From IMG/VR virus record IMGVR_UViG_3300029240_000001: DNA of 64,000 nucleotides; one strand, written 5' to 3'. This document shows, in pieces, positions 1-51,842 of this stretch. Each line of letters starts with the position of its first letter. Positions within the stretch are counted from its first letter, which is position 1. The position numbers and the translations under genes were made by a program. Under the pieces are notes generated by a model, which searched no databases, was not told where the DNA came from, and saw only the letters and a program-made list of their open reading frames with translations. The DNA comes from a virus.

Positions 1-305
1 ATATAACTATGATTACATGGGTTAAAGATAGGCAAGGGCTTGGGCAGTATTACAGAGGGTTGTCTGAGTCTTGTTTATTCGCCACAACAAAAAAGCGTTT
101 GCCATATAAGTTAGATGAAAACGGAAAGCGTTGTCAGGGAGTTACGGCATTTTTTGAACCGAAACGAGAGCATAGTCGTAAGCCTATAAAAATGAGAGAA
201 ATGATTGAAAATGTAAGCCATTCCCCCAGAATCGAACTTTTTGCCAGAGAATCTTTTGATGGTTGGGATAATTGGGGGAATGAAATTAAGGAGGAAAATG
301 AATGA
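1..305 (+). CDS. MT-A70 family DNA adenine methyltransferase, C-terminal part (5' end lies left of window)
   Basis: Reading frame is open to the window edge. C-terminal MT-A70-like string EHSRKP...IELFARESFDGWDNWGNE. Confidence 0.7.
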   Translation, partial: ITMITWVKDRQGLGQYYRGLSESCLFATTKKRLPYKLDENGKRCQGVTAFFEPKREHSRKPIKMREMIENVSHSPRIELFARESFDGWDNWGNEIKEENE

Positions 306-2575: not shown

Positions 2576-2604
2576 TTGACAAAACAAAATTATAGCGTTA
2601 TAAT
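2576..2604 (+). promoter_or_regulatory. consensus sigma-A type promoter with the conserved element in its spacer
   Basis: TTGACA, 17-nt spacer, TATAAT. Spacer reads AAACAAAATTATAGCGT. Confidence 0.75.
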
Positions 2605-2651
2605 CATAATAACAAATGAATGATTATAGTTTTTGAATGGAGGTATTCCTT

Positions 2652-2882
2652 ATGAACAACCAACGCAGAAAAAAAATAGAAATTCTATCCACGGAAATTG
2701 AAAAACTTAGTAATCGTATCCAAGATATTTGTGATGAGGAACAAGAATGCTTGGATAATATGCCAGAAAATCTACAAGGAACTGACAGGTATAGCAAGGC
2801 AGAAGAATGCTGTGAACAGCTTGAAGAATGTATTGATTTGCTTAGTGAAGTGATTGACATCATGGAGGAGGTCGTAACGTAA
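2652..2882 (+). CDS. hypothetical acidic coiled-coil protein
   Basis: ATG at 2652 lies 8 nt after GGAGG (2639-2643). Confidence 0.55.
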   Translation: MNNQRRKKIEILSTEIEKLSNRIQDICDEEQECLDNMPENLQGTDRYSKAEECCEQLEECIDLLSEVIDIMEEVVT

Positions 2883-3365
2883 ATGAATAATGGCATCATG
2901 TGTGATTATTTTGACTATGACGGAATTAGATATTATGCTGGTTCAAAATTTAAATGTAACAATTTTGTAAAGACAAACGTTCAACTTTTTCCAGAAATTG
3001 AAGTCACATTTGTCAAGTATAATAAGAAGTCTAATATTTGCCGCATTCGCAGTAATGTTGCTATGTGTGAATTTGAGTTCGCGCTTAGTACTTTTACAGA
3101 CAATATTATTTGCGTCACTTGTCCTAAGACAAAAGAAGTTGTAAATAAAACAAATGAAAAATATGAAAATGACAAACAATATTATCACTGGGTCGAAGAC
3201 GGAGAAGACTGTTATAAGGCAAAGCCAGATGCCATTGGACTAGGTTGGGTGTGGTACATTTCTCTTATGGTAGTTGCGACGATCTTCAAGGGAGCTCTTG
3301 GTCTCTGGGCTCTTATTACGTTTGTTTTTGTAAGATGGAGAAAAAAGAAAATTAAGGAGGGATAA
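2883..3365 (+). CDS. hypothetical protein with C-terminal transmembrane helix
   Basis: Hydrophobic stretch GLGWVWYISLMVVATIFKGALGLWALITFVFV near the C-terminus. Confidence 0.55.
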   Translation: MNNGIMCDYFDYDGIRYYAGSKFKCNNFVKTNVQLFPEIEVTFVKYNKKSNICRIRSNVAMCEFEFALSTFTDNIICVTCPKTKEVVNKTNEKYENDKQYYHWVEDGEDCYKAKPDAIGLGWVWYISLMVVATIFKGALGLWALITFVFVRWRKKKIKEG

Positions 3366-3368: not shown

Positions 3369-4343
3369 ATGACAGGCAGGACTGAAAAGGAAATTGCGTC
3401 AACTAAAAAAATGCAAGAAAAACTGAAAGAACTTCCTAAAATCTTTTCTGAATTTTATTATTATATGTGTTCAACAAAATCTTATACAACAGTTGAAAGA
3501 TATATTGCATATGTAAGGGAATTTGCAGAATTCTTGAATGATGGGGACATTCCAAATAACTTTTACAAGAGAGTTACTCCGCTAGATATTAACAAATATT
3601 TTGCGGCAATGAAGAATAAAGAAAGCGCACATGGGCATTATAATACGAGTGACAGTATTCGTGCGACAAAATGGTCTGCGCTGAATACTTTCTTTGGATT
3701 TCTTAAGAGTAATAACTATATTGCAAATAATCCAATGGAGAGAACGGAGCGTCCAAAAGTTCAGGATAGACCAGATGTCGCCTATTTGACAGAAGAAGAG
3801 ATGCAAGCAATTCTAGACAATGTAAACAAACTTGCAAGCACAAAGATGAAAAACAGAGATTTGGCAATTATTATGCTTGGACTTACAACTGGACTTCGTG
3901 TATCAGCACTTACGCAAATTGATATTAGCGATATTGATTTTGAGAATAATACTATCAAGGTTATTGAAAAGCGAGGAAAAACATGTAATATTCTTATTGG
4001 AGATAAGGTAAAGGAACAGCTCGAATTGTGGTTACAAGATAGAAAAAAATATTTTAGCATGACAGATTCCGATGCGCTGTTTATTTCTAGTTTTAAGAAA
4101 AGAATTACTAGAGATGGAATCAGGGTGATTCTAGAGAAATATAGCAAAGATGTTACAAATAAGCATGTTACTCCACATGTACTAAGGCATTCTTGCGCAA
4201 CAAATCTATATGAGAAGACAGGAGATATTTATCTTTGTGCAACAGTGCTAAATCATAAAAATATTGCTACTACCATGAGATATGCAAGTATGTCTAAAGA
4301 TAAAAAACAGAAAGCAGCAAATATTTTGAACGACATGATTTAA
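3369..4343 (+). CDS. tyrosine recombinase (XerC/XerD-phage integrase family)
   Basis: Motifs TTGLRVSAL, HVLRHSCATNL and HKNIATTMRYA give the R..HxxR..Y catalytic pattern. Confidence 0.8.
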   Translation: MTGRTEKEIASTKKMQEKLKELPKIFSEFYYYMCSTKSYTTVERYIAYVREFAEFLNDGDIPNNFYKRVTPLDINKYFAAMKNKESAHGHYNTSDSIRATKWSALNTFFGFLKSNNYIANNPMERTERPKVQDRPDVAYLTEEEMQAILDNVNKLASTKMKNRDLAIIMLGLTTGLRVSALTQIDISDIDFENNTIKVIEKRGKTCNILIGDKVKEQLELWLQDRKKYFSMTDSDALFISSFKKRITRDGIRVILEKYSKDVTNKHVTPHVLRHSCATNLYEKTGDIYLCATVLNHKNIATTMRYASMSKDKKQKAANILNDMI

Positions 4344-4349
4344 TAACAT

Positions 4350-4378
4350 TTGACAGGGATAATTTTGTACTGTACAAT
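4350..4378 (+). promoter_or_regulatory. sigma-A type promoter with the inverted conserved element in its spacer
   Basis: TTGACA, 17-nt spacer, TACAAT. Spacer 4359-4372 (ATAATTTTGTACTG) is the reverse complement of CAGTACAAAATTAT. Confidence 0.7.
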
Positions 4379-4415
4379 ATAAAAGAAATGAAAAACTCAC
4401 AAGGAGTGTGATTAT

Positions 4416-5336
4416 GTGTTCTATAATGAGGAGGTTAAAATACAATTCATAAACGATTATAAGAGAAGTAGAGTCGTTAATGAAACTTCATTAACTGGAA
4501 TGTTTAACAAGATATATAAATATGAAATACAAAATAAAAAAGATTGCAATAATTTTGCAATTGAAGAAATACTGGCCATGTATCGTTGCTTCAAAGCGAA
4601 ATCTGTGCACGTGCTTGAGAATTACAATGTGTATTTAAAAAGCTATGCAGCGTTTTGTATGCATTATGGTTTTGGCATGGAAAACAATTACGCAAATATT
4701 AGTAAGGCCATGCTGCAAGAATGTCTTGATGAAAATATAATTAAACAAAAGTTCTTGACAAGGGAACAGTTTGACGAGGTAGAAGACGAATTATACAACT
4801 ATACAGACAAGGCGTTGCTGGAGTTACTATGGGAAGGCATTAGTGGAAAAAGCATGGAAGATATTGTTTCGTTAAAGAGAAGTATGATAAGTGAAGACAA
4901 ACAATATATTTGTTTTGAAGACGGACGAAAAGTAAAGTTATCTGCAAAATTGTATAATTATTTAGACAAGGCATTTGCAGAAAAAGAATATATGTGCTAT
5001 GGGGTAACTGTTAGAGTTAAACAACTAATTGGAGATGATTGTTTATACAAGGAAATGGATAATGCGTATACAGTAGACTCTGATGACAAGTTTTTCCGTT
5101 GGGTATATAGAAGAATTCAGACATATAGGAAGCACGTAGGATTGCCATTGCTTACTATGAAGACAATTGCGGCGTCAGGGCTTTTATATAAAATTAAACA
5201 AGCAATGGAAAAGAATAATCTTGGGCTAAGAGAATTTTTATATACAGAGGAAGGCAAAGCATTGGCACAGCAATATGGATACAAGTTAAATTCATATGTT
5301 GATGTTATTGCCAACAAGTTTGCAAGTCTGGTGTAG
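4416..5336 (+). CDS. recombinase-fold DNA-binding protein lacking catalytic residues (possible MrpR/YopR-like regulator)
   Basis: GTG start 9 nt after AAGGAG. N-terminal SAM-like segment. ALLELLWEGISGKSMEDIVSLKRSMI resembles the start of a tyrosine-recombinase catalytic domain, but I see no R/HxxR/Y. Confidence 0.4.
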   Translation: MFYNEEVKIQFINDYKRSRVVNETSLTGMFNKIYKYEIQNKKDCNNFAIEEILAMYRCFKAKSVHVLENYNVYLKSYAAFCMHYGFGMENNYANISKAMLQECLDENIIKQKFLTREQFDEVEDELYNYTDKALLELLWEGISGKSMEDIVSLKRSMISEDKQYICFEDGRKVKLSAKLYNYLDKAFAEKEYMCYGVTVRVKQLIGDDCLYKEMDNAYTVDSDDKFFRWVYRRIQTYRKHVGLPLLTMKTIAASGLLYKIKQAMEKNNLGLREFLYTEEGKALAQQYGYKLNSYVDVIANKFASLV

Positions 5337-5372
5337 GCCGTATTATTGCGGTCTATAATTTTCTTTTGTTCA

Positions 5373-5389
5373 ACAATACAAAATTATAA
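5373..5389 (+). promoter_or_regulatory. conserved intergenic element copy
   Basis: ACAATACAAAATTATAA. Confidence 0.6.
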
Positions 5390-5400: not shown

Positions 5401-5429
5401 TTGCCGAACATATGTTTTTGTTGTATAAT
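5401..5429 (+). promoter_or_regulatory. sigma-A type promoter
   Basis: TTGCCG, 17-nt spacer, TATAAT. Confidence 0.6.
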
Positions 5430-5491: not shown

Positions 5492-5743
5492 ATGGAAAAG
5501 AAAATTGTAAATGACTTACATAATCTAAATGGTAAGAATGGGGAAATAACAATACATCATGATTGGTATGGAAATCAAAAAATTAGGGGAATTTTCCATA
5601 TTATTGATGATGGAGAAAGGATTGGTGTTAAATTGAAAGATAATGAAATCTTTTTATGGAACAATGAAATTACAAACATTGAGGTAAGTGGAAATTACGC
5701 AATGATCAAAGGGGAGTCCATGCAAATTAAAATCGAAATATAA
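5492..5743 (+). CDS. hypothetical protein
   Basis: GGGGAG RBS; lies downstream of a promoter. Confidence 0.55.
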   Translation: MEKKIVNDLHNLNGKNGEITIHHDWYGNQKIRGIFHIIDDGERIGVKLKDNEIFLWNNEITNIEVSGNYAMIKGESMQIKIEI

Positions 5744-5769: not shown

Positions 5770-5798
5770 TTGACAAGACACAATTATTATGGTATAAT
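5770..5798 (+). promoter_or_regulatory. consensus sigma-A type promoter (extended -10)
   Basis: TTGACA, 17-nt spacer, TGgTATAAT. Confidence 0.75.
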
Positions 5799-5814
5799 GC
5801 AATCGTAATGAAAA

Positions 5815-5831
5815 GTAATACAAAATTATAG
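5815..5831 (+). promoter_or_regulatory. conserved element copy in a 5' leader
   Basis: GTAATACAAAATTATAG, about 20 nt after the -10 at 5793-5798. Confidence 0.6.
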
Positions 5832-5867: not shown

Positions 5868-6077
5868 ATGAAATCAGAGAGCGTCAATGTTCAATGCCAG
5901 AAATGTGGAACAATTTTTCAGGTTGATGAACGAAATAATTATATTGAGTATTTATATATACAAGCGAAATGTCCATGCTGTGAGCACGAAAATGATATGT
6001 TGAATATAGGGAAAGACATTTTAGATAAATACACATATTATAATGTGGTCATGGATGAAAGATATTATAGGTATTAA
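5868..6077 (+). CDS. zinc-ribbon protein
   Basis: CQKCG...CPCCEH in the translation. Confidence 0.55.
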   Translation: MKSESVNVQCQKCGTIFQVDERNNYIEYLYIQAKCPCCEHENDMLNIGKDILDKYTYYNVVMDERYYRY

Positions 6078-6092
6078 TTTTTATTTTATTAA

Positions 6093-6109
6093 ACAATACA
6101 AAATTATAG
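6093..6109 (+). promoter_or_regulatory. conserved element copy just upstream of an RBS
   Basis: ACAATACAAAATTATAG followed by GAAAAGGAG. Confidence 0.6.
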
Positions 6110-6129: not shown

Positions 6130-7203
6130 ATGGCAAACAAACTTTTTGAACTTCCACAAACCAAGGGAACCTTTCAGGTTAGAGGAATTGTAAGCGGAGT
6201 AGAGAAGGATAACTTCTATACAGAAAAGAAGACCAAGACAGGCAAGGATTTCCGTATGGTTAACTTTGGCGTAGAATATGAAGACAAGAAGACAATTTAT
6301 CCTTCGCTTAATGGTATGCCGCGCGATAAGGTATATTTTAGTAAGAAGGATGAAGATGGCAAGACAGAAGTAAAGGCAATTGCTTGGAAGGATAGAATTA
6401 AGAATGCACCAGAGGGATATCGTATGATTGGTGTACTGACTGGGCTTAAGAAAGTTCCGGGAGAGAATGGAAAGCTCAAGAATGACAATCATTATAGAAC
6501 AGAATATGATGCATGTGAATATATTAATGAAAATCTTAATGATGGTGATTCTGTTTTTGTTAAAGGAAATCTAGAATTTGGCAGTTATACTAACAAAGAT
6601 GGGGAAGTCTCTCGTACCACAAAGTTTGTTCCAACACAGGTTTCTCTATGTCAGAAGGATGTTGACTTTGAGGCGGAAGATTATGCTCCCGCTCATGATT
6701 TTACGCAGACGATTATTTTTGTTGGTATTGATCAGGAAAGAGAAAACGACAAGCCAACTGGTCGATTTGTAGTTGATGCAAAGATTGTGAATTATAACTC
6801 TATTGAGTCTGCTGAATTTATTATTGAAGATGCAAAGCTCGCAAAGCAGATGCGCAGTGGGCTAAAGCCTTATAATTCCATTCAGGTTCATGGGCACATC
6901 AATGTTGTTAATAATGTTGAAGACATGAATGATGAGGAAGATGATGATTGCTGGGGCGAATCTAATGATATGGACAATAAGAGAGTTTTTGCACCGACTC
7001 ATCGAGAACTTATTATTACAGGTGCAAAGCCATCAACTATTGACAAAGACACATATACTGAAAAGGCAATTGATGAGGCAATTAAGAAGGTAAATGCAGC
7101 AAAGAAAGCAGAACAGGATTTCACTGGTAAGGCAGAGTCAACATCCAATGTAGATGATGATTGGGGCGACGATGCATCTGACGATGAAGATGAGCCATGG
7201 TAA
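6130..7203 (+). CDS. single-stranded DNA-binding-like protein
   Basis: Acidic C-terminal tail DDDWGDDASDDEDEPW typical of SSB tips; sits next to the recombination and helicase genes. The OB fold is not verified. Confidence 0.5.
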   Translation: MANKLFELPQTKGTFQVRGIVSGVEKDNFYTEKKTKTGKDFRMVNFGVEYEDKKTIYPSLNGMPRDKVYFSKKDEDGKTEVKAIAWKDRIKNAPEGYRMIGVLTGLKKVPGENGKLKNDNHYRTEYDACEYINENLNDGDSVFVKGNLEFGSYTNKDGEVSRTTKFVPTQVSLCQKDVDFEAEDYAPAHDFTQTIIFVGIDQERENDKPTGRFVVDAKIVNYNSIESAEFIIEDAKLAKQMRSGLKPYNSIQVHGHINVVNNVEDMNDEEDDDCWGESNDMDNKRVFAPTHRELIITGAKPSTIDKDTYTEKAIDEAIKKVNAAKKAEQDFTGKAESTSNVDDDWGDDASDDEDEPW

Positions 7204-7213: not shown

Positions 7214-7243
7214 GTCTAGGGAAGAATTAAATCTTCCCTAGAC
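7214..7243 (+). terminator. 12-bp hairpin after the SSB-like gene (no T-run)
   Basis: GTCTAGGGAAGA-ATTAAA-TCTTCCCTAGAC. It abuts the next element copy. Confidence 0.4.
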
Positions 7244-7258
7244 AATACTAAATTATAG
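7242..7258 (+). promoter_or_regulatory. conserved element copy
   Basis: ACAATACTAAATTATAG. Confidence 0.55.
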
Positions 7259-7276: not shown

Positions 7277-8287
7277 ATGGAAGAATTAAAAGAAATGAAT
7301 TCTTCCGTTGATGGGCTACAAGATACAATATATACGGAAGTAAAAGATCCATATGGATTCATTTATATCACAACGAATTTGATTGATGGCAAAAGATATT
7401 TAGGCCAAAGAAAATTCTATGGAAATTGGCAAGAATATCTTGGTAGTGGTGCAGCATTTAAACAAGCAATTGACAAATATGGAAAAGAAAATTTTGTAAG
7501 AAATGTAATTGATATTGCTTATTCTGCAGAAGAATTAAATGAAAAGGAATACCATTATAGTGTTTTCTTTAATGCTGTTGAATCTAACAATTGGTATAAT
7601 CTTGTTTATGGTGGAGGAACAACGCAAGGATGGACTCCAAGTAAAGAAACAAGAAAAAAGATATCAAAAGCTGCAAAAGAAAGACTTTCAGATCCAAATA
7701 ATCATCCAATGTATGGAAGAGTAGGATTAGTAGGCGAGAATAATCCCCAGTTTAAAGTTTCTCCAAAAGAACGCATGGATGAAGAAACATATAAACAATG
7801 GTATGAAAAACATAAATTATATTGGGCAAATCCAACAACTAAAGGCAAACATATATGGATAGGAAAACAACATCCCAGTTTAGGTAAAAAATTGTCAGAT
7901 GAACAAAAATTGAATCTATCAGAAAAAGCAAAAGAAAGATTTATAAATTCAAGCAATCATCCAATGTACGGAAAACATCACACAGAAGAAGCAAAGCAAA
8001 AGATGAGTGATTCTCGTAAAGGGAGTAATTGGTGGAAGTGTAGAAGAATATATTGTATAGAATTAAATCAAATTTTTTGGGGAGCAAAAGAAGTACAAAA
8101 TTTATATGGATTTGATCCAAGCTCTATTACAAAGTGCTGTAGAGGTAAACAAAATTATACGTATAAACATCCACAAACAGGCGAGGCATTGCATTGGTTG
8201 TATGCGGAAGATGCAATTGAAAAAGGATATATCACACAAGAAGAGTTAGATAGATATATAAATAGTTTAAAAGGTAAAGGAGACTGA
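7277..8287 (+). CDS. GIY-YIG homing endonuclease with NUMOD3-like repeats
   Basis: GFIYITTNLIDGKRYLGQ...EKEYHY, plus repeated NHPMYG(R/K) modules. Confidence 0.8.
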   Translation: MEELKEMNSSVDGLQDTIYTEVKDPYGFIYITTNLIDGKRYLGQRKFYGNWQEYLGSGAAFKQAIDKYGKENFVRNVIDIAYSAEELNEKEYHYSVFFNAVESNNWYNLVYGGGTTQGWTPSKETRKKISKAAKERLSDPNNHPMYGRVGLVGENNPQFKVSPKERMDEETYKQWYEKHKLYWANPTTKGKHIWIGKQHPSLGKKLSDEQKLNLSEKAKERFINSSNHPMYGKHHTEEAKQKMSDSRKGSNWWKCRRIYCIELNQIFWGAKEVQNLYGFDPSSITKCCRGKQNYTYKHPQTGEALHWLYAEDAIEKGYITQEELDRYINSLKGKGD

Positions 8288-9384: not shown

Positions 9385-10050
9385 ATGAGCGCCACTTTAA
9401 TTAGAAAATGCGCGTTCTGTGGGGAAGATATTGTTTTAACAAAGAATGATATGCATATGGTTTCTTATAAACAGAAAAGCTATCATACTGAATGTTTTAA
9501 AACAATGTGTAATGGGCGAGTACTAAAAAACAACAGGTACTCGTCCATTTATTCAGATGCCTTACAGAATTTAGATCAACTAGAATCAGAAGCAAAAAAG
9601 AAATTAATGCATCGTTTTGTGCAAGACGAATTCAATGAGTATTTGATTGTACATTATGATGTTGGGGCATTAAGTCGTCGTTTTTGGTCAATTATTGCAG
9701 ACGTTCAATCTGGAAAATATAATGGAAGACGGTGCAAGCCAATTGAATTAGAAACATTGTTTGATATGTGGAAGGACTATCAGAAAGAACTAGACAAAAC
9801 AAATGCATGGAACAAGCGTCATGGCAAGGTGATTGATGGAGAGGTAAGAGTTAACTATGATCTTGCTATTTTAATGAGTAATTATGTAAAATATTCAAAA
9901 GCCAAGGAAAAAGCAAAGAAAGAAGCAGAAGAGAAAGAGAAACAAAGTCGCGTTAAAAAGAGTGTAAACATTGATTATAGCAAAATTAAAGCAGTTGAAC
10001 AGAATGATGGATTAGGGGATATTAGCGATCTTTTGGAAGACTTAATTTGA
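9385..10050 (+). CDS. hypothetical protein with N-terminal zinc finger
   Basis: CAFCG...HTEC; lies between the recombinase and helicase genes. Confidence 0.5.
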   Translation: MSATLIRKCAFCGEDIVLTKNDMHMVSYKQKSYHTECFKTMCNGRVLKNNRYSSIYSDALQNLDQLESEAKKKLMHRFVQDEFNEYLIVHYDVGALSRRFWSIIADVQSGKYNGRRCKPIELETLFDMWKDYQKELDKTNAWNKRHGKVIDGEVRVNYDLAILMSNYVKYSKAKEKAKKEAEEKEKQSRVKKSVNIDYSKIKAVEQNDGLGDISDLLEDLI

Positions 10051-14041: not shown

Positions 14042-14289
14042 ATTATTTTTTCGTCAAAGTTTAAGTCTTAAAGTTGTAAAGAGGGCTTTTAGATAATTAT
14101 TAATTAAAATTGTGTGCCCACAAAGTTTTACAAAATCCTTGAGCAATGGTTTGGTTTCAAGTTCAATGGCCATAGGTTATCCACAAGGCTGAATGGTAGC
14201 AATACTTGTACGAAAATAGGCTAATGTGAAATAGACAGAATTTTGAGTACTAGCAGAGCTGGGCATCTCTGAAAACTGCCCATTGATAT

Positions 14290-14376
14290 GCAGGTGTGCT
14301 GGAATTGGAATACAGAACAGACTTAAAATCTGTCGCCCAGATGGGATTGAGGGATCGTGACCCTTCACCTGCACCA
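14290..14376 (+). tRNA. tRNA-Leu (UAA), type II, CCA encoded
   Basis: Acceptor GCAGGTG/CACCTGC; anticodon arm ACAGA-CTTAAAA-TCTGT; long variable arm. Confidence 0.8.
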
Positions 14377-14464
14377 CGCGAACAAATGGAATGCGTCAAG
14401 TAATGTGTGGCTGGCTGACCTAAGAACCATTGACCTTGGCAAGTCATTAAACTACCATCTATAT

Positions 14465-14549
14465 GGGGGTGTGGCGTAACTAGCAGCCGCGCAAGTCTCA
14501 AAAACTTGTGGAGAAATCCGTCCGGGCGCACATCCCGGCACCCCTACCA
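14465..14549 (+). tRNA. tRNA-Leu (CAA), type II, CCA encoded
   Basis: Acceptor GGGGGTG/CACCCCT (G1-U72); anticodon arm CAAGT-CTCAAAA-ACTTG; atypical T-loop CGCACAT. Confidence 0.65.
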
Positions 14550-14552
14550 TAT

Positions 14553-14645
14553 CCTCCTTTAGTGTAATGGTAGCACGGCGCACGCAAGGCGCTAGAGCGG
14601 TTCAACTCCGTAATGTGTTAGAGCGGTTCGATTCCGCAAGGAGGT
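14553..14645 (+). tRNA. tRNA-Cys (GCA)-like with C33 and a duplicated T-arm-like hairpin
   Basis: Acceptor CCTCCTT/AAGGAGG; anticodon loop ACGCAAG; AGAGCGGTTCAACTCCGT followed by AGAGCGGTTCGATTCCGC. Confidence 0.5.
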
Positions 14646-14829
14646 CGTCTGGCACGGACGAAGTGCGCTGTGGTCATACAGTAAAATGACAAAGCTCATG
14701 GCCGATATGGATGGCGACAAATATGAGCGAGGCAGAACAATTAAATCTTGGGTCTGCAAGTAAGCCTGTCGGCAACAGAGGAGAGCCTTATGCTTGCTAG
14801 GTGTTCTAGATGCCTTTCTCCTCATAAAT

Positions 14830-14928
14830 GGGAACTTGGTCAAGTTGCTAAGACACTGGCGGGGACAGAATAGTGCAAACATTAAGAGCACACTGCCGGA
14901 GACACGAGTTCGAATCTCGTAGTTCCCA
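14830..14928 (+). ncRNA. tRNA-like gene (99 nt) with about 30 nt replacing the anticodon loop
   Basis: Acceptor GGGAACT/AGTTCCC; T-arm ACGAG-TTCGAAT-CTCGT. A 7-bp stem CTGGCGG/CTGCCGG encloses a 30-nt insert. Confidence 0.5.
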
Positions 14929-14937
14929 ACTTAATAT

Positions 14938-15022
14938 GGGTCAGTAGCGAATCGGCAAACGCAGCAGACTGTAAATCTGCCTCCTTCGGGAATAGGTGGA
15001 TCGACACCACCCTGACCCACCA
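14938..15022 (+). tRNA. tRNA-Tyr (GUA), type II, CCA encoded
   Basis: Acceptor GGGTCAG/CTGACCC; anticodon arm GCAGA-CTGTAAA-TCTGC. Confidence 0.8.
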
Positions 15023-15073
15023 AATGATAGTGAGTAGTGCAAATAGAAAAGATAAGAACGAAATAGTACCTTG

Positions 15074-15150
15074 TATGGTGGATAAACCTATTAATCACTT
15101 ATTGATTTTATTGGAGTCATGCACGGCTCCGCTTGCTATCATTACCATAG
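15074..15150 (+). ncRNA. structured RNA closed by a 7-bp acceptor-like stem (not a cloverleaf)
   Basis: TATGGTG/TACCATA closing stem. Internal hairpins AATCA-CTTAT-TGATT and GGAG-N10-CTCC. Confidence 0.3.
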
Positions 15151-15201
15151 GTCTTTGTGGCAACTGTACGACCTTATAAACTACTAAAGTTGCAATATTA
15201 T

Positions 15202-15277
15202 GCTCCGGTAGTTTAATTGGTCAAAACGTGCGACTTATAATCGCTTGTTGGGGGATCGTGGCCCTCTCGGAGCACCA
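15202..15277 (+). tRNA. tRNA-Ile (UAU), CCA encoded
   Basis: Acceptor GCTCCGG/TCGGAGC; anticodon loop CTTATAA. Confidence 0.7.
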
Positions 15278-15309
15278 CATTAAATTTTACACTGAAGAAG
15301 TGATGACAT

Positions 15310-15990
15310 TTGAGTAATGACGTAATAGGAACTAGAATTGGCATTTACGATATTTTATATGAATGTAATTTTAAATCAAATGATGGACATAAATTGTACC
15401 ATGTCAAATGTTGCGAATGCGGATATGAAACTAATATGCAACTAAGACATATTGGTGATGCAAAAAAATGTACCCATATCAATAAAAATGGGACAATAAA
15501 AATGTTTAGCGCTTATACTTGGGAGAACAAAAGAATAGGCGGAATATTCCAAGGCATGATCCAAAGATGCTACAACGAGCATGATAAAAGTTATCGTTGG
15601 TATGGGGCTAAAGGAATTCAAGTCTATGATGAATGGATTAACAATCCAAAGTCCTTTGAATATTGGGCTTTAGAGAATGGTTATGCAGACGATTTAACGA
15701 TTGATAGAATTAAAGAAGATGATAATTATTGCCCTGAAAATTGTAGATGGGTTACTGGATCGAATAATGCAAAGTATAAATCCACCACAAAAATGACTAC
15801 GGTAGATGGTATATCCCATACTGGAAGAGAATGGGCAGATATTCTTCATGTTGGAACAAATGTTATAAATACAATGTTAAGAAGGTTTCCAGAAGAACAA
15901 GTAAAGGAATTCATTAAAAAGCGAAAATTAGATCCGTCAAAGCATCCAACTAGTCATCAAACTTGGTTCCAAGTTTATGAGATTTCATAA
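15310..15990 (+). CDS. HNH-family homing endonuclease-like protein inside the tRNA array
   Basis: TTG start. RCYNEHDKSYRWYGAKGIQVYDEW...LTIDRIKEDDNYCPENCRWVT matches a motif common in phage HNH-type endonucleases. Confidence 0.65.
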   Translation: MSNDVIGTRIGIYDILYECNFKSNDGHKLYHVKCCECGYETNMQLRHIGDAKKCTHINKNGTIKMFSAYTWENKRIGGIFQGMIQRCYNEHDKSYRWYGAKGIQVYDEWINNPKSFEYWALENGYADDLTIDRIKEDDNYCPENCRWVTGSNNAKYKSTTKMTTVDGISHTGREWADILHVGTNVINTMLRRFPEEQVKEFIKKRKLDPSKHPTSHQTWFQVYEIS

Positions 15991-16151
15991 TTCCCAGATC
16001 AAAGTCAACAACAAAGATTGCTGACCTGTCGTGTGGCAGCATATAAATGAGCGACTTAATACATTTTCCATATAGCTCCTTAAAAATTGCTTTAAGCAAA
16101 GCGTAAATGCTTATCGCTACTAATCATTAGCGGTTGTTGAAACATAAATGA

Positions 16152-16230
16152 AACACTGAGGTCGGAAAGGCTCCCGACGCTCCTCTTATGAGGAACCTGA
16201 GATGCAGGATACGCCGCCCTGCCAGTGTTT
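16152..16230 (+). ncRNA. tRNA-shaped cloverleaf with a 4-nt loop where the anticodon loop should be
   Basis: 7-bp stem AACACTG/CAGTGTT. Three arms: GTCGG-N8-CCGAC, TCCTC-TTAT-GAGGA and GCAGG-N9-CCTGC. Confidence 0.4.
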
Positions 16231-16240
16231 AAAATTATAT

Positions 16241-16311
16241 TATCGTATAGCTTAATGGGAAAGCGCCCTCACTATCAGAGGGAGATACTTGTTCGATTCA
16301 AGTTGCGTTAG
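16241..16311 (+). tRNA. tRNA with anticodon loop ACUAUCA (nominal UAU; C33 and C37)
   Basis: Canonical D arm GCTT-AATGGGA-AAGC and T arm ACTTG-TTCGATT-CAAGT. Acceptor stem has one mismatch. Confidence 0.55.
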
Positions 16312-16389
16312 AAAAATGTGGATGCTATGCACGTCGCGCGCCGCCACTAAACAAAGCGTAGCTGGCGCTGTGGAAAGACACAGAGATCT

Positions 16390-16474
16390 GCAGGAGTCCC
16401 ATAGTGGTCGATTGGAGCGGTTTTGTAAGCCGCCAGCTTTGCTCACGTCGGTTCGAATCCGACCTCCTGCTCCA
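16390..16474 (+). tRNA. type II tRNA with loop UUUGUAA (nominal UGU, or GUA shifted by one), CCA encoded
   Basis: Acceptor GCAGGAG/CTCCTGC; 13-nt variable arm; T arm GTCGG-TTCGAAT-CCGAC; discriminator U. Confidence 0.6.
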
Positions 16475-16596
16475 CATTGCCAGCTATCGCTGCTTGTAGT
16501 TAGTGAGTTGTTTTAGAAGCAGTAAACCCACAAGTATGGTGGGCGGCACACCAGTAGTCGTTAAGGGCGAGATCAAGATGAACTGGTACATTATAT

Positions 16597-16712
16597 GCAA
16601 GTAAGGAAGAATTGGTCTTCTCTCATTTAACAAAGCTGAGATACAAAAAGATCGCTACTTTGGAAACGTTCGCTTTGGGGAAATGTGTGTTCGAATCACA
16701 CTACTTGCTCCA
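16597..16712 (+). ncRNA. tRNA-like gene (113 nt + CCA) with about 40 extra nt in the anticodon/variable region
   Basis: Acceptor GCAAGTA/TACTTGC; D arm GAAG-AATTGGT-CTTC; T arm GTGTG-TTCGAAT-CACAC. Confidence 0.5.
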
Positions 16713-16832
16713 GCGAGGTAACGTCACTTCCATCACGTAGCACAGCGGATAGCAAATAATGAAAGAGATATGTGCACCTAGGCTCTTGTTTGAATTATTT
16801 GGTTATGATAAAGAAGGATTGGAAACCTCGCT
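16713..16832 (+). ncRNA. 119-nt structured element closed by a perfect 7-bp stem
   Basis: GCGAGGT/ACCTCGC. It starts right after the preceding CCA and ends 5 nt before the next tRNA-like gene. Confidence 0.3.
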
Positions 16833-16836
16833 TTAT

Positions 16837-16926
16837 GAGAGCGTAACTCAGTTGGTAGAGTTTTATAGCGTGAAGGGATATGCTATTGAATACCCTTAGT
16901 CGCCAGTTCGAGTCTGGCCGCTCTCA
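16837..16926 (+). ncRNA. tRNA-like gene (90 nt) with a pseudoknot-capable insert in place of the anticodon arm
   Basis: Acceptor GAGAGCG/CGCTCTC; D arm ACTC-AGTTGGTA-GAGT; T arm GCCAG-TTCGAGT-CTGGC. Interleaved helices ATAGC/GCTAT and AAGGG/CCCTT. Confidence 0.5.
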
Positions 16927-16953
16927 TTAAAATATATATTAGGAGAAATAGTT

Positions 16954-17208
16954 ATGGCAATTAAAATAATTAGTAAAGGAAAAGATTTTGATAATCCTAT
17001 ATTTACCCAGCGATGCCCTAAATGCGATTGCGTATTTACCTATCAGAATGAAGATGCTCACAGGGAGCCTACTGGCAGGTATTACAAAGATTTTGAAGAT
17101 TATTTTATTAAAATGGACGATTGCGACAGACAAGAAATTGCAGTATCTGTTGAATGTCCTTGGTGTCATAAAAAGATTCATATAAAGGATGAATATAAAA
17201 AGATATGA
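16954..17208 (+). CDS. zinc-ribbon protein inside the tRNA array
   Basis: AGGAGA RBS; CPKCDC...CPWCHKK. Confidence 0.6.
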   Translation: MAIKIISKGKDFDNPIFTQRCPKCDCVFTYQNEDAHREPTGRYYKDFEDYFIKMDDCDRQEIAVSVECPWCHKKIHIKDEYKKI

Positions 17209-24483: not shown

Positions 24484-25512
24484 GTGGATGTACAATCTTT
24501 AAAAGAATATATATTAGACAATGAAAAATTGCCAGAGATTCTTCAGGAGATTGGATGCCACAGTATTCACGATCATGGTGGATATATTACATGCGGAAAC
24601 AAAACTGGAGACAACAAATCAGCAATTGTTATTTATTTAAATGAAAATTTAACTGTTGTAAATTACACTCGTACAATGACGAGCAGTAAAAGAACAACAG
24701 ATATCTTTGATTTGATTTGTTATAACGAAGACTATTCTTTTCCTGAAGCTCTTAAGTTCTGTTGCAATTTATTTGGGCTAGATTATTATCAAGAGCCAGA
24801 AGAAGTTCCAGAATCTCTTCAAATACTTAAAATGTTACAGCAAATGGCGACAGAAGAAGATGACTTTGATGACACTCCGCTAAAACCTATTCCAGAAAAA
24901 ATTCTATCTTATTATCTCCCATACGGCAATAAACTATGGGAGGATGATGGGATTAGTCTAAGCACTCAAAAGCTATTTGAAGTTTCTTTTGATCCAATGA
25001 CAAACTCAATTGCGATTCCAATTAGAGATGAAATTGGGACATTGGTTGGGATTAAAGCAAGAAGAATGGAATATGACCCGGATAGTGGAATGTCTAAATA
25101 TTTTTTTCTCGAACCATGTGCAAAGTCAAGAATCTTGTATGGTCTATTTCAAAATATAAAATTAATTCAACATACAGGGACAGTATGGGTCGGTGAAAGT
25201 GAAAAATTTGTGCAGCAATTGTACGATATGGGGTATTATGGTGTAAGTACTGGTGGAACAAAGATTTCAAAAAATCAAGTTGAGATGTTAACAAGATTAA
25301 ATGCCAAGATTGTTTTTTGTTATGATGAAGATGTTGATGAAGAACAATTAAAAAACATTTCAAATATGTTCTTAAATGGGATCCCAGTATATGCAATTAT
25401 TGATAAAGATCATATTCTTGACAATAAAGAATCTCCTAGCGACAATCCCGAAAAATTTAAATATCTAATTAAAAATAATATATATAGTTTGCGTGAGGAT
25501 AATGACGAATAA
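24484..25512 (+). CDS. DNA primase (Toprim domain)
   Basis: GTG start; VGESEKFV...GG...FCYDEDVD. Confidence 0.65.
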   Translation: MDVQSLKEYILDNEKLPEILQEIGCHSIHDHGGYITCGNKTGDNKSAIVIYLNENLTVVNYTRTMTSSKRTTDIFDLICYNEDYSFPEALKFCCNLFGLDYYQEPEEVPESLQILKMLQQMATEEDDFDDTPLKPIPEKILSYYLPYGNKLWEDDGISLSTQKLFEVSFDPMTNSIAIPIRDEIGTLVGIKARRMEYDPDSGMSKYFFLEPCAKSRILYGLFQNIKLIQHTGTVWVGESEKFVQQLYDMGYYGVSTGGTKISKNQVEMLTRLNAKIVFCYDEDVDEEQLKNISNMFLNGIPVYAIIDKDHILDNKESPSDNPEKFKYLIKNNIYSLREDNDE

Positions 25513-44689: not shown

Positions 44690-44893
44690 ATGGTAGTGCT
44701 TTATAGTACTCATTGTCCAAGATGCTGTATGATTGAAAAGAAGCTTCGCAACAAAGGCATTGAGTTTGAACTATTTGATGATGCTAACGCTATGCTAGAG
44801 AAGGGGTTTAAGGAAGTTCCAAAACTAGAAGTGGATGGCAAACTAATGGATTTTAAGGAAGCGAATGAGTGGGTTAATGGGGTGGTGAATTAA
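44690..44893 (+). CDS. nrdH: glutaredoxin-like protein (NrdH-like)
   Basis: VVLYSTHCPRCCMIEKKL (CxxC motif); immediately upstream of nrdD. Confidence 0.6.
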   Translation: MVVLYSTHCPRCCMIEKKLRNKGIEFELFDDANAMLEKGFKEVPKLEVDGKLMDFKEANEWVNGVVN

Positions 44894-46815
44894 TGGATAT
44901 TACGCTTAAACTAACAAAAGACTTTGAGCGCTGTCTTGAAGATCTAAAAAAGAAGTATGGGGAAGACTTTGAATATATTAATGGAGTGCATCCATCTCAA
45001 CTTGATTTTAGCGAGTTTCTTGAAAAATTTGTTGCAAATGATACGATGGCAGATACAACGATTGACCCAAATGCCAACGCAAGTCACAAAGATATTCGTT
45101 CGTTCATGACAGAAAAGGGCAAGTCTGAGGACAAGCTATTTGCTCTTAATAAGATTTTCCTTGAGATTAAAAAGAAGTGGGGACTAAGAACTGCAAAGCA
45201 GTGGCTAGAGCAGGAATTTAGTAAGGGCCTTTATCTTAATGATAGTTCTACAGCTAGCTATTTCCCTTATTGTTGGGCAAATGATTTTACGAGACTGGCA
45301 ACAGAAGGACTATTCTTTCTTAATGGGTACAATGCGCAGCCACCAAAGCATCTTACTACGTATTTTGATGACGTAATTGAATTTGTTTCATTCCTCTCAA
45401 ACCGCCAAAGCGGAGCTGTCGGCATGCCAAATGTCCTTATTTGGGCGTATTATTTTTGGAAGCATGATGTGGAAAATGGATATTATCTCAAAGACCCTGA
45501 CACATATCTAAGACAGAACTTCCAGAAGTTTATTTACCGTTTGAATCAGCCATTCTTAAGAATCGATCAGTGTGCTTTTACAAATGTAAGCATCTTTGAT
45601 AGGCCCTATCTGGAGTCGCTATTCGGCGGCGTAGAATTTCCAGACGGTTCATTCGCAATGGATGAAATTGAGGAACTTATTAAATGCCAGCAGGTTTTTA
45701 TGGAGGTTGTATCTGAGACAAGAGAACATAATATGTTCACATTTCCGGTACTAACATACTCGCTACTTTACAAAGATAATAAATTTCAGGACGAACCATT
45801 TGCACGTTGGTGTTCTGCTCATAACATGAAGTGGAGCGACAGTAACTTTTTTGTGTCTGATAATGTAGGAGTGCTAAGTAACTGTTGCCGTCTATTAAGC
45901 AATACGAAGAAACTTGACGCTTTCATCAATAGCATTGGTGGAACTGCACTTAGCGTTGGTAGTTGCAGAGTATCTACCATTAATCTTGTAAGAATTGCAT
46001 ATGAATCTAAACTAAATAAAAAGAAGTATTTAGACATCTTAAAAGATAGAGTGTTACTTGATTGCAAGGCACTATATTCTATGAGACATATTCTACAACG
46101 TAATATCGAAAAAGGACTTCTGCCAAACTATCAAGACGGGGCCGTCGAATTTGACAAGCAATTCTGCACCATTGGCGGTATTGGAATGTATGAAGTGATG
46201 GATATGTTTGGTCTGATTAACACTGACGAGTTTGGGTATAAGTCTTACAGTGATGACGCTGTTGAGTTTGCAACACAGATACTGGACACAATCAACGAAG
46301 TAAAAGATAATTTTGATTGTGATTTTAGTTTTAATGTTGAAATGATTCCAGCAGAAAATTGTGCAGGTGTGATTTGCCAAGCAGATAATCTTCTATATGA
46401 AAAAGATAAATACTTTATTTATTCTAACCAGTGGATTCCGCTGACTGAAAAATGCACAATTCAAGAAAAATGTCGACTTGGTAGTCTGTTTGATGCAAAG
46501 TGTGGTGGCGGATGTATTGCCCACATCGACATCGAGAATCGTTTTGCTAATGAGGAAGAAGCATGGGACATGCTAAATTATGTAGCGGAGCATGGGGTAA
46601 TCTACTTTGCATTCACAACGAAGATTTCTGTTTGTGAAGACCATCATGCTTTTATTGGAACAAAAAACTGTCCAACATGTGGGAAGCCAGTCGCAGACCA
46701 ATTTGCCAGAGTTGTTGGATTTTATACCCCAGTGTCATCATATCAAAAGATTAGAAAGAAAGAATTCAATCACAGACTTTGGTATGATGTTCTAAACAAG
46801 GATGGCATTATGTGA
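44893..46815 (+). CDS. nrdD: anaerobic ribonucleoside-triphosphate reductase
   Basis: C-terminal zinc site CPTCG and glycyl-radical motif RVVGFY. Confidence 0.85.
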   Translation: MDITLKLTKDFERCLEDLKKKYGEDFEYINGVHPSQLDFSEFLEKFVANDTMADTTIDPNANASHKDIRSFMTEKGKSEDKLFALNKIFLEIKKKWGLRTAKQWLEQEFSKGLYLNDSSTASYFPYCWANDFTRLATEGLFFLNGYNAQPPKHLTTYFDDVIEFVSFLSNRQSGAVGMPNVLIWAYYFWKHDVENGYYLKDPDTYLRQNFQKFIYRLNQPFLRIDQCAFTNVSIFDRPYLESLFGGVEFPDGSFAMDEIEELIKCQQVFMEVVSETREHNMFTFPVLTYSLLYKDNKFQDEPFARWCSAHNMKWSDSNFFVSDNVGVLSNCCRLLSNTKKLDAFINSIGGTALSVGSCRVSTINLVRIAYESKLNKKKYLDILKDRVLLDCKALYSMRHILQRNIEKGLLPNYQDGAVEFDKQFCTIGGIGMYEVMDMFGLINTDEFGYKSYSDDAVEFATQILDTINEVKDNFDCDFSFNVEMIPAENCAGVICQADNLLYEKDKYFIYSNQWIPLTEKCTIQEKCRLGSLFDAKCGGGCIAHIDIENRFANEEEAWDMLNYVAEHGVIYFAFTTKISVCEDHHAFIGTKNCPTCGKPVADQFARVVGFYTPVSSYQKIRKKEFNHRLWYDVLNKDGIM

Positions 46816-49689: not shown

Positions 49690-50349
49690 ATGAAAACTTG
49701 GTACAACTCGCTTACTACCGCACAAAAGCTATGGATTATTTGCTCAACGTTAGCTATCGCGCTCCTAGGTGTAATTAGTGGAGACAATTGGATTAACATT
49801 CTAATTGGAACAATTGGTATGGCGTATGTTGCTGTCTATAGTTCTGGTGCTAGAGGCGCATTTCTTATGGGCGTTGTGTACGTAGGTCTTTACACAATTA
49901 TCTGTCTAGAGAACCGTATTATGCTTGACGCGCTTCAAAATGTGATTCTGATTCCAATTTATATTGCCTCATACATCCACTGGGGCAATCGCAATGTAAA
50001 GCCACATAACGGGACACCAAAACAAAATATTGTTTTTATCCTTATTACAATTGCAGTTGGAGTTGGTCTATACTTCCTATCTAAAGCATTACATGGGAAT
50101 TACAGTGCGCTTGACGCATTTAATACAGCATGCACACTAGGAGCAATGGTTCTTGGTTATTTTGGGTTTTCTATTAACTGGGCGCTATGGAGTGCTAACA
50201 ATATTGCCTCTGCAGTTACATTCGGACTTGCTCTTGCAACACCAACAGGCAGTATCACCGTGTTCGCAATGAAAGTTATCTTTATGATTAATGGCATTAT
50301 TGGTTGGTACACATTCTCTAAGATTGGCAAAGAAGCACTTAAGGAGTGA
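49690..50349 (+). CDS. pnuC: PnuC-like nicotinamide riboside transporter
   Basis: About 7 hydrophobic segments; the size and W-rich pattern are typical of PnuC. Confidence 0.6.
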   Translation: MKTWYNSLTTAQKLWIICSTLAIALLGVISGDNWINILIGTIGMAYVAVYSSGARGAFLMGVVYVGLYTIICLENRIMLDALQNVILIPIYIASYIHWGNRNVKPHNGTPKQNIVFILITIAVGVGLYFLSKALHGNYSALDAFNTACTLGAMVLGYFGFSINWALWSANNIASAVTFGLALATPTGSITVFAMKVIFMINGIIGWYTFSKIGKEALKE

Positions 50350-50354
50350 TAACT

Positions 50355-51218: not shown

Positions 51219-51413
51219 ATGAAATACATAACAGTAAAACAACTATATGAAAAATTAAATGCAGAGCATCCGGGGCTAATTGGAATTAATAGTGTCTATG
51301 AGCTTGTCAAACGTAAAGACTTCCCGTCAATTAGAAATGGGCGTAAATTCCTTATCATTGAGGACAAAGTTGATGAATGGTTTGAAAAGAAAAGTTTGGC
51401 TTATAAAAGATAG
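51219..51413 (+). CDS. xis: excisionase-family helix-turn-helix protein
   Basis: ITVKQLYEKL...SVYELVKRKDFPSIRNGRKFLI. Lies upstream of int. Confidence 0.6.
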   Translation: MKYITVKQLYEKLNAEHPGLIGINSVYELVKRKDFPSIRNGRKFLIIEDKVDEWFEKKSLAYKR

Positions 51414-51426: not shown

Positions 51427-51478
51427 AATTGTGGTCAAAAGATGTGGTACAATAAAATTGTGGTAAATGATGTGGTCA
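51427..51478 (+). repeat. four direct TGTGGT(A/C) repeats
   Basis: TGTGGT at 51430, 51443, 51459 and 51471. Confidence 0.75.
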
Positions 51479-51720
51479 TTCAGCAAAAACATATCACTTA
51501 AATCTAGGAGAATCAATGACTTGAGTTGTTTTTATTTATGGACACTTATGGTTCATATAGCCTGAGAAACAGCCATAAAAACATAATAGAACAGCTATTC
51601 ACAAACACAAGTCTAAAGCATTGGAGCTAGAATATATGCTGGTTTAAGCTTGCTTTGGAAGAAAATTGTATTCACTCGATATCACCAATAATCTTGTACT
51701 GTTATGATAAATAATCAAAA

Positions 51721-51751
51721 AATTGTGGTATTATTGTGGTACGATTGTGAC
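51721..51751 (+). repeat. three 11-bp direct repeats ATTGTGGTA / ATTGTGAC
   Basis: TGTGGT at 51724 and 51735; TGTGAC at 51746. Confidence 0.75.
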
Positions 51752-51803
51752 TAAAAATTGCCATTGACCATATTGTTTTCATCAAATATAATAATGATAT
51801 GAA

Positions 51804-51820: not shown

Positions 51821-51842
51821 TAGAAAATGGAGGAATATATTT

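Follow-up and report, generated by a model that had tools for sequence, protein, structure and literature searches.

The gene at 4416..5336 encodes, judged by its sequence and its modelled structure, a member of the MrpR/YopR/SroF family, and by analogy with that family it is probably a master repressor of the MrpR/SroF type, presumably binding and reading the asymmetric element that is repeated through the window. Here and below, the window is the entire 64,000-nucleotide stretch of viral DNA that was analyzed (IMG/VR virus record IMGVR_UViG_3300029240_000001). The precedent, which the first-pass annotation of this DNA had cited, is confirmed in the literature, where MrpR/YopR/SroF is described as a non-catalytic master repressor with a recombinase fold whose binding site is a repeated element, SPBRE (PMC10516654; bioRxiv 10.1101/2025.11.27.690993). 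Coordinates are collected in Table 1.

Table 1. Features of the repressor locus and of the distant integration region, with positions in the window
Feature	Position	Strand	Details
Promoter-like site TTGACA-17-TATAAT (12/12)	2576..2604	+	Element copy 2576-2595 begins at -35
Xer-like two-domain tyrosine recombinase, 324 aa	3369..4343	+	Pfam, PDB and NCBIfam matches; R-K-H-R-H-Y set complete
Promoter-like site TTGACA-17-TACAAT (11/12) of MrpR-like gene	4350..4378	+	
Element copy, reversed, in 4350..4378 spacer	4357..4376	-	About -28..-9; candidate autoregulatory operator
MrpR/SroF-family recombinase-fold protein, 306 aa, catalytically degenerate	4416..5336	+	Candidate master repressor; Pfam, phmmer, AF2, Foldseek, catalytic mapping
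Terminator-like hairpin and T-run	5332..5357	+	Closes MrpR-like transcription unit
Inverted element pair	5353..5389		5353-5372 on -, 5370-5389 on +; matrix scan
Promoter-like site TTGCCG-17-TATAAT (10/12)	5401..5429	+	
LexA/Cheo-type box GAACATATGTTT	5406-5417		Overlaps -35 and spacer of promoter 5401-5429
83-aa, nearly all-beta protein	5492..5743	+	Conserved syntenic partner just downstream of repressor
12/12 promoter (5770-5798) with degenerate element on -35/spacer	5770..5831	+	Second element 5812-5831 (about +7..+26)
Element copy	6090..6109	+	20 nt upstream of YorF-like gene 6130..7203
HTH_17 Xis-like gene	51219..51413		
Two reversed element copies	51686-51705, 51804-51823	-	Flank integrase promoter 51764-51792
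Arm-type tyrosine integrase, 380 aa	51843..52985	+	

The gene starts with GTG, 9 nt past the ribosome-binding site AAGGAG (4401-4406), and its product matches both Pfam models of the family, MrpR_N_CB (PF22822) at 43.1 bits and MrpR_C_cat (PF22823) at 27.2 bits, the cut-off for each model being 27 bits and the margin for PF22823 therefore just 0.2 bits. A phmmer search of the PDB returned 9rd5, 8bj6 and 8a0a (SroF-phi3T, YopR and MrpR) with E values from 6e-13 to 2e-11. Structure prediction, proposed in the first-pass annotation as a check on this gene, gave an AF2 model (pLDDT 88.9) with a recombinase fold closest to SroF, MrpR and YopR. The top Foldseek match was 9rd5_H, phi3T SroF with DNA (E 1.2e-14, TM 0.74), with MrpR, YopR and SroF-Sar following as the next best, and Cre, IntI and lambda Int were about 10 orders of magnitude weaker, true recombinases scoring 1e-4 or weaker. 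The likeness to MrpR, YopR and SroF (8a0a, 8bj6, 9rd5, 9rgl) covers the two-domain tyrosine-recombinase fold, both Pfam families, the loss of Arg I, His II and Arg II, the kept tyrosine and a conserved G-[IV]-S-G motif, but identity to these proteins is just about 24%.

Catalytic positions were mapped by MAFFT L-INS-i sequence alignment with active recombinases and not by structural superposition; this alignment recovers the S/N/V substitutions reported for MrpR (PMC10516654). The peptide that had been quoted as resembling the start of a catalytic domain, ALLELLWEGISGKSMEDIVSLKRSMI, lies at residues 133-158 of the product. The accompanying statement that the catalytic residues could not be found was correct for Arg I, replaced by S146 (never R or K in the family of 37), His II, replaced by K249 (K in 37/37), Arg II, replaced by A252 (Q, A or S in the family), and His/Trp III, replaced by T277 (T or S in the family), but not for the tyrosine, which is retained as Y287 (Y in 37/37). 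When the repressor family was compared profile to profile with the active recombinases, only 45 N-terminal columns aligned, at a probability of 1.7%. Within the G-I-S-G motif, G144 is invariant, and we read it as aligned with MrpR G136, the c2 temperature-sensitive site. In addition, H237/R238 in the base-reading helix of SroF align with Y231/R232 of this protein, which are invariant in 37/37 sequences, an invariance that fits the constancy of the element core across the clade.

The core of the element, TACAAAATTAT, occurs 15 times in the window against 0.21 expected, a number reached in 0/100 shuffles, and the full consensus, t.RACA(A/G)TACAAAATTAT(A/T)G, is asymmetric and about 18-20 bp long. 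A matrix scan of the window yielded 28 sites compared to approximately 1.25 in shuffles, with 25 of the 28 being intergenic. These sites fall into fixed positional classes, namely the -35 and spacer, just past the predicted transcription start, and just before ribosome-binding sites; seven copies overlie the -35 hexamers of promoters close to consensus, and at least 13 sites play no part in a -35 or -10, being located at +3..+28 or ahead of a ribosome-binding site. Sites cluster at the promoters of early and replication genes. The site at 5770..5831 precedes a 69-aa zinc-ribbon-like gene (5868..6077), and the YorF-like gene, whose counterpart in relatives matches PF27337 YorF, opens an SPbeta-like replication block. 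Orientation is strongly biased: the element is forward at every lytic-side site found, and reversed copies stand at the two identified lysogeny promoters, one for the repressor and one for the integrase. Forward copies include 24427-24446 and 6090-6109. The copy in the repressor's promoter spacer is where the first-pass annotation had placed it. Among the relatives, which are metagenome contigs of roughly 150-170 kb with SPbeta-like YorF/YorG/YorH replication genes, a reversed copy at the repressor promoter is also present in L006 and L008 and a degenerate copy in L003, and a variant with TTAT changed to TTAAT is found, including in the reversed copy of L006's own promoter.

As had been supposed, the best candidate within the window for the reader of this element is 4416..5336, the only recognizable candidate global regulator among the roughly 50 ORFs scanned; the other DNA-binding matches in this set are the Xis-like HTH_17 protein and a small Arc/HicB-like protein. 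Hidden repressors were also considered among the strand-opposed ORFs at 13.8-15.1 kb and 17.95-18.2 kb; these had no Pfam matches, and ORFs 14250-15098 and 17952-18224 are spurious, as they overlap tRNA genes. The core of the element remains constant while the repressor falls to 42-45% identity, which would also suit a reader that is better conserved, for instance a host factor. We nevertheless regard it as unlikely that the element is read by another phage protein or a host factor, or is a shared promoter or leader module, with the repressor acting on other sites. Such a reader would suit the unchanged core in relatives with repressors of just 42-56% identity, as well as the strong orientation bias, and with seven copies on -35 hexamers the promoter sequence itself could account for some of the conservation. 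It is opposed by the sites that have no part in a -35 or -10, by the invariance of the repressor residues aligned with the SroF base-reading helix, by reversed copies standing precisely at the promoters of repressor and integrase, and by the lack of any further repressor-like protein among the ORFs scanned.

In the switch that we propose, the 4416..5336 protein, a recombinase fold minus its active site, would work as a sequence-specific DNA clamp, and by analogy with SroF of phi3T it would bind the asymmetric element as a monomer, shutting down early and replication genes. At sites beginning at -35, binding of RNA polymerase would be blocked, and at sites at +3..+28 or before ribosome-binding sites the block would fall at or after the start of transcription. 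The reversed copy in the repressor's own promoter would provide autoregulation, and that between the integrase promoter and ribosome-binding site would place int under the same switch. Induction would probably proceed via the SOS response, for which the LexA-boxed 83-aa gene is the best antirepressor candidate. Counting against a simple steric repressor is the single orientation of the lytic-side copies, which steric repression would not need.

The integration genes had been said to lie 47 kb away from the recombinase pair, and the Xis-like gene and the integrase, which probably make up the integration module, were located approximately 47.5 kb off. Of the two reversed copies here, the one at 51804-51823 sits at about +5..+24, between the -10 of the integrase promoter and the ribosome-binding site, and is conserved upstream of integrases as low as 60% identical. 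An Int/Xis module with the element at its promoter argues against a reading that we consider quite improbable, in which 4416..5336 binds the element to time lytic development, shutting off early genes and not maintaining lysogeny. The repressor gene's own autoregulated-looking promoter and terminator also argue against it, as does the LexA-box gene immediately downstream, which is comparable to the SroF-Sar switch. In its favor are the clustering of element sites at early and replication promoters and the presence of family members in Geobacillus E3 and Bacillus Nate, phages that may or may not be temperate; given these MrpR-like genes, the family may not always maintain lysogeny.

If 4416..5336 is a lysogeny repressor, the small gene downstream of it may encode the factor that relieves repression. 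LexA-type boxes are found at the place equivalent to the one in Table 1 in L003 (GAACACACGTTC), L006 (GAACAAATGTTC) and L008 (GCACATATGTTC), and the box is absent before the small gene in the L005/L007 subclade. The whole window holds four LexA boxes where three are expected, which is not above chance, so the SOS argument is one of box position and conservation in relatives only. In phi3T, the LexA-controlled protein Sar is the antirepressor of SroF. Like Sar and YopT, 5492..5743 is small, lies close downstream of the repressor, has a predicted SOS (LexA) box over its promoter, and diverges faster than the repressor (23-31% versus 45-56% identity in the same relatives). Homology to Sar/YopT was rejected, as BLASTP found nothing and Foldseek against the PDB, including 9rgl, found nothing at E 1e-3 or better; the model returned only weak PH-like beta-sandwich matches with E above 0.03. 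It consists of one helix and eight strands, whereas Sar is an intertwined alpha/beta dimer. With its conserved LexA box, though without a Sar-like fold, the protein is a candidate SOS-controlled antirepressor. A linked pair of ideas, that the 83-aa protein stands for a non-Sar antirepressor class for recombinase-fold repressors and that operator orientation carries meaning, is offered tentatively, and we lean against it; one possible way for orientation to matter would be a clamp with polarity, blocking strongly in one direction but leakily in the opposite one.

The companion gene, 3369..4343, encodes an intact and apparently active Xer-type tyrosine recombinase. The full R..HxxR..Y pattern claimed for it is present within the Phage_integrase domain (PF00589, 2.6e-36), as R177, K201/K204, H270-x-x-R273, H296 and Y305; R-H-R-H-Y is invariant across four orthologues (40-52% identity), and K204 becomes Y in the L005 orthologue. 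The best PDB matches are XerA (5hxy, 1.4e-20) and XerD, and the XerA, XerC and XerD models of NCBIfam are matched, each under its equivalog cut-off. Like the simple recombinases XerA, XerC/D and Cre, the protein has two domains, no arm-binding domain and a full catalytic set, but unlike them it is phage-encoded and belongs to an early operon, 2637..2882 / 2883..3365 / 3369..4343, probably driven by promoter 2576..2604. No site resembling dif or lox turned up for this enzyme, and our best guess for its role is genome cyclization or multimer resolution. With YopP/SroD, the XerC-superfamily integrase of the SPbeta sro operon, it shares a position just upstream of a recombinase-fold repressor, and both appear intact and distinct from the integration genes of their own phages, but unlike YopP/SroD it is seemingly driven by a separate, element-bearing promoter. 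Its best match in the YopP family, Geobacillus E3 GP148 (24%, E 2e-6), is weaker than its match to the window's own integrase (4e-8).

A single recombination machine, in which the dead protein is a targeting or regulatory subunit of the Xer-like enzyme and the element or 5353-5389 is the recombination site, would account for the strict adjacency in seven lineages, the YopP...YopR parallel in Bacillales phages and an inverted pair readable as two 13-bp arms around a 7-bp spacer, but it is highly improbable, with two proteins that have no detectable sequence similarity, promoters that appear separate, element copies that are mostly single, and SroF reported as a monomeric repressor with no recombination activity (PMC10516654). 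As a lox-like site, the inverted pair is unsupported, because its left arm is not conserved even in the close relative L009.

For a repressor of the MrpR/SroF type, the surroundings of 4416..5336 are partly those seen in SPbeta-like phages, which also have a multi-copy asymmetric intergenic element, a tyrosine recombinase gene upstream of the repressor, YorF/YorG/YorH genes nearby and a small LexA-box gene downstream of the repressor. The active-plus-dead recombinase pair mirrors YopP...YopR of these phages, and the sro operon reportedly occurs only in B. subtilis phages with arbitrium (PMC8612738). The operator is unlike the phi3T box in sequence, and integration uses a tyrosine Int with Xis in place of the serine recombinase SprA of SPbeta. 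In SPbeta, sro is a six-gene operon, sroA-F, with the ParB-like YopQ/SroE, downstream of aimR-aimP; here, the repressor is instead served by a promoter of its own. No gene lies between 3369..4343 and 4416..5336, and hence no YopQ/SroE is present there; no homologue of it was found elsewhere in the window, the 459-aa ORF being unrelated to YopQ. Neither the upstream 3.3 kb of the window nor the upstream 10 kb in relatives showed any AimR/AimP (arbitrium) genes.

The recombinase-repressor pair is kept in 7/7 clade lineages examined, and pair and element together persist in relatives whose repressor identity is as low as 42%, with YorF, AAA_24 and YorH homologues downstream of the pair. A DNA search of a phage collection with the 2-kb region gave no match. 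The exact sequence of the 4416..5336 protein is present in 258 blocks of an assembly collection, mostly on contigs of 50-200 kb, and a profile of its family recovers 2,220 clusters at 50% identity. Host assignment is weak: one relative, with a 47%-identity repressor, is within a Faecalimonas MAG, and the contig of another carries the label Prevotella. The window phage also encodes an anaerobic NrdD. To our knowledge, recombinase-fold master repressors have been described experimentally in SPbeta-like Bacillus phages only. The numbers of blocks and clusters suggest that this kind of repression occurs widely, also in large phages whose hosts are anaerobic and probably live in the gut, and that this type of repressor reaches beyond Bacillus phages. 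The locus would represent a compact switch without arbitrium, made up of a repressor, its predicted operators, a partner gene with an SOS box and a companion recombinase that is conserved, and it may help explain why an active recombinase accompanies a dead one.

The product of 4416..5336 is a new, distant member (~24% identity) of a known repressor family, that of MrpR/YopR/SroF, the non-catalytic, recombinase-fold master repressors of SPbeta-like Bacillus phages. Its open reading frame has exactly the annotated coordinates and encodes 306 aa from a GTG start 9 nt past AAGGAG. The protein scores 43.1 and 27.2 bits with the two Pfam MrpR models, above the cut-off of 27 in each case, and it also matches PHROG 5830 (1.4e-39) and the sequences of the solved SroF-phi3T, YopR and MrpR structures (6e-13 to 2e-11). 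For an AlphaFold2 model built from 37 homologues (pLDDT 88.9), the best structural match is DNA-bound phi3T SroF (E 1.2e-14, TM 0.74), then MrpR, YopR and the SroF-Sar complex, followed by integron integrase, Cre and lambda Int at 1e-4 or weaker. The first-pass annotation had compared the protein with MrpR/YopR as an inactive recombinase-fold protein and proposed structure prediction as a check; both the family matches and the predicted recombinase-type fold, with SroF ahead of the true recombinases, bear this out.

Catalytic columns were mapped by MAFFT L-INS-i alignment of MrpR-like proteins and active recombinases, 4416..5336 being read through its homology alignment with MrpR. In this sequence alignment Arg I is replaced by S146, His II by K249, Arg II by A252 and His/Trp III by T277, and none of 37 family members restores the replaced columns. 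The earlier remark that the catalytic residues could not be found holds for these four positions but not for the tyrosine, which is retained as Y287. The alignment also reproduces the published substitutions in MrpR, where Ser, Asn and Val stand in for the catalytic Arg, His and Arg (PMC10516654). The G-I-S-G motif of 4416..5336, with its invariant G144, corresponds to MrpR G-V-S-G, and from this correspondence we infer that G144 is the counterpart of G136, the site of the classic c2 temperature-sensitive mutation (G136E).

In SPbeta-like phages, MrpR/YopR/SroF binds the repeated SPBRE, as determined by ChAP-seq and EMSA (PMC10516654), and phi3T SroF is a monomer clamping a 26-bp box, its helix alpha13 reading bases through K233, F234, H237 and R238. 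SroF H237/R238 align with Y231/R232 of 4416..5336, two residues that do not vary across the new family. The repeated ~20-bp element of the window has a core, TACAAAATTAT, that occurs 15 times against 0.21 expected, and an extended consensus of t.RACA(A/G)TACAAAATTAT(A/T)G. A matrix scan found 28 sites of at least 12 bits, against ~1.25 in shuffles, 25 of which are intergenic on a rough gene map. Classed by position relative to sigma-A-like promoters, seven sites occupy -35..-16, the element starting at the -35 hexamer of an 11-12/12 promoter (class A); five forward sites, and one reversed at the integrase promoter, lie at ~+3..+28 (class B); and eight have no strong promoter in the nearest 60 nt and, as read from the flanks, lie 15-40 nt ahead of a start codon (class C). 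These positions would plausibly suit a repressor. All copies ahead of early and replication genes are oriented along transcription; reversed copies (see table) include the one previously noticed in the promoter spacer of 4416..5336. The window's late region has a single copy (61970-61989, minus strand, 21.5 bits), which lies ~64 nt ahead of 60814..61905, a tail gene on the minus strand, and is forward with respect to that gene.

Reversed copies of the element and other features of the window
Feature	Position	Strand	Remark
MT-A70 methyltransferase	9-305		Auxiliary-looking; C-terminal part, at window edge
Reversed element copy	4357-4376		In MrpR-like promoter spacer, ~-28..-9
Reversed element copy	5353-5372		One arm of inverted pair beyond repressor's terminator
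Cell-wall hydrolase domain protein	18332-18973		Auxiliary-looking
Class-V aminotransferase	20200-21303		Auxiliary-looking
Reversed weak element site	25127-25146		12.2 bits, inside gene 24484..25512
Anaerobic ribonucleotide reductase NrdD	44893-46815		Auxiliary-looking
Guanylate kinase	50346-50903		Auxiliary-looking
HTH_17 Xis-like gene and tyrosine integrase	51.2-53.0 kb	+	
Two reversed element copies	51686-51705, 51804-51823		Flanking integrase promoter

The neighboring open reading frame, 3369..4343 (324 aa), has the full R..HxxR..Y pattern ascribed to it, as R177, H270, R273 and Y305; its Pfam match is Phage_integrase (2.6e-36), and the N-terminal part gives weak SAM-like matches. Because its best solved relatives (XerA, XerD and a XerC-like protein) and its top NCBIfam models (XerA, XerC and XerD, every one under its cut-off) are Xer-type, it is a simple two-domain Xer/Cre-type enzyme, in contrast to the 380-aa integrase at 51843, which has extra Phage_int_SAM_3 and Phage_int_M regions. 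The four pattern residues, together with H296 and K201, are invariant in four orthologues only 40-52% identical (K204 is missing from one), and this conservation argues for a functional recombinase. A 12/12 promoter at 2576-2604, which carries an element copy, apparently drives this gene along with two small ones ahead of it.

A family search with 4416..5336 yielded 149 homologues; the 120 listed are from metagenome contigs of up to ~170 kb, and among them PF22823 is present in all and PF22822 in all but two. With E at most 0.001, the full HMM search gave 2,220 clusters at 50% identity; the exact protein is present in 258 blocks of the assembly collection, and 162 of these have 50-200 kb contigs. 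Seven lineages were compared (repressor identity 56, 47, 47, 45 and 42%, plus two near-identical). In all seven, a recombinase gene (323-326 aa where called) lies directly upstream of the repressor and an 83-88-aa gene directly downstream; next, in most of them, comes a 67-70-aa gene and, further on, come YorF-like, AAA_24 and YorH-like genes. As these downstream Pfam families carry SPbeta protein names, the clade is a distantly related SPbeta-like one. Its members retain the element, always forward: the relative at 56% identity has TACAAAATTAT, those at 42-47% have ACAATACAAAATTAAT. In the promoter of the repressor gene itself, the reversed copy is found again, with a local TTAAT variant, in relatives' loci L006 and L008; that of L003 is degenerate, and L005 and L007 have none. 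Integrase genes whose products are only 60% identical also keep the reversed copy between -10 and ribosome-binding site, one of them with a TTAA variant. The xis-int intergenic region also holds three plus-strand copies of TTGTGGTA (51458-51465, 51723-51730 and 51734-51741), possible arm-type sites for the integrase in attP; relatives with a 60%-identical integrase share the tandem pair, which lies ~30 nt ahead of the integrase promoter.

A promoter-like site at 5401-5429 precedes the 83-aa gene 5492..5743, and GAACATATGTTT, overlapping its -35 and spacer, fits the Gram-positive LexA (Cheo) box, GAAC-N4-GTT(C/T). Over the whole window this pattern is not above chance in number; the box recurs at the equivalent place in L003, L006 and L008 (one mismatch in L008), amid otherwise unalignable intergenic DNA. 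The 83-aa protein, a conserved syntenic partner diverging faster than the repressor, has 159 profile-level homologues, is confidently predicted as one helix and eight strands (pLDDT 91.8) and shows no resemblance to the antirepressors Sar and YopT. The phi3T Sar is LexA-controlled, and its gene lies two genes downstream of sroF. Because a LexA-like box and a small conserved partner likewise lie downstream of the repressor here, the 83-aa protein might, by analogy, be an antirepressor. In L005 (~9935-9965) and L007 (~9945-9975), the 47%-identity subclade, the repressor promoter carries LexA-box-like GTACAAATGTTG or GAATATGTGTTT instead of the reversed element, and the small downstream gene follows ~60 nt after the repressor without its own box; SOS input may be wired differently there. 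The next gene in the window, 5868-6077 (plus strand), has a 12/12 promoter with two element copies and encodes a 69-aa zinc-ribbon-like protein with two CxxC pairs and a weak HypA-type match; a counterpart occupies the same slot, two genes beyond the repressor, in four of the five more distant relatives examined (L003, L005, L006 and L009).

The window (35.7% G+C) belongs to a large phage genome, with a plus-strand block that extends to ~53 kb and encodes DNA polymerase III alpha, NAD ligase, RecJ, SF1 helicase, an AAA_24 protein and NrdD, after which come minus-strand tail genes. A 55-aa Arc/HicB-like ribbon-helix-helix protein (53137-53304, plus strand) directly follows the integrase, and a hairpin with a 13-bp stem (53302-53333), reading as a minus-strand terminator (T-run on that strand only), marks the junction of the blocks. 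A SegE-like GIY-YIG/NUMOD3 homing-endonuclease gene (7277-8287, plus strand), which separates the YorF-like gene from the AAA_24 gene and is preceded by an element copy at 7239-7258, looks like a mobile insertion, since it is missing there in L003, L005 and L006. A plus-strand tRNA array (14290-18035) comprises nine ARAGORN genes (Leu x2, Tyr, Ile-tat x2, Thr, Phe, Met and Gly), and two further Rfam genes (17347-17418 and 17599-17669), and it encloses a skipping-rope RNA (RF02924, 16151-16230, 78.8 bits, cut-off 36.7).

The order yopP (XerC-like integrase), yopQ, yopR, found in phi3T, Mammaliicoccus phi6255 and Geobacillus E3 (PMC8612738), indicates that the pairing of a dead recombinase with an active neighbor is old and has been conserved. 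Unlike that system, the module in the window lacks YopQ/SroE; upstream of it, no arbitrium genes were seen over the 3.3 kb that the window offers or over 10 kb in relatives. The repressor gene has its own promoter and a terminator (5332-5357), and as no terminator was seen between it and 3369..4343, read-through from the promoter at 2576-2604 could reach it and give an "establishment" route to repressor synthesis. The pairing of an active with a degenerate recombinase is confirmed, and within the reach of computation its interpretation is supported. Compared with the SPbeta-like system, this module is a modified version; the phages that carry it are large, infect anaerobes and form an abundant group.
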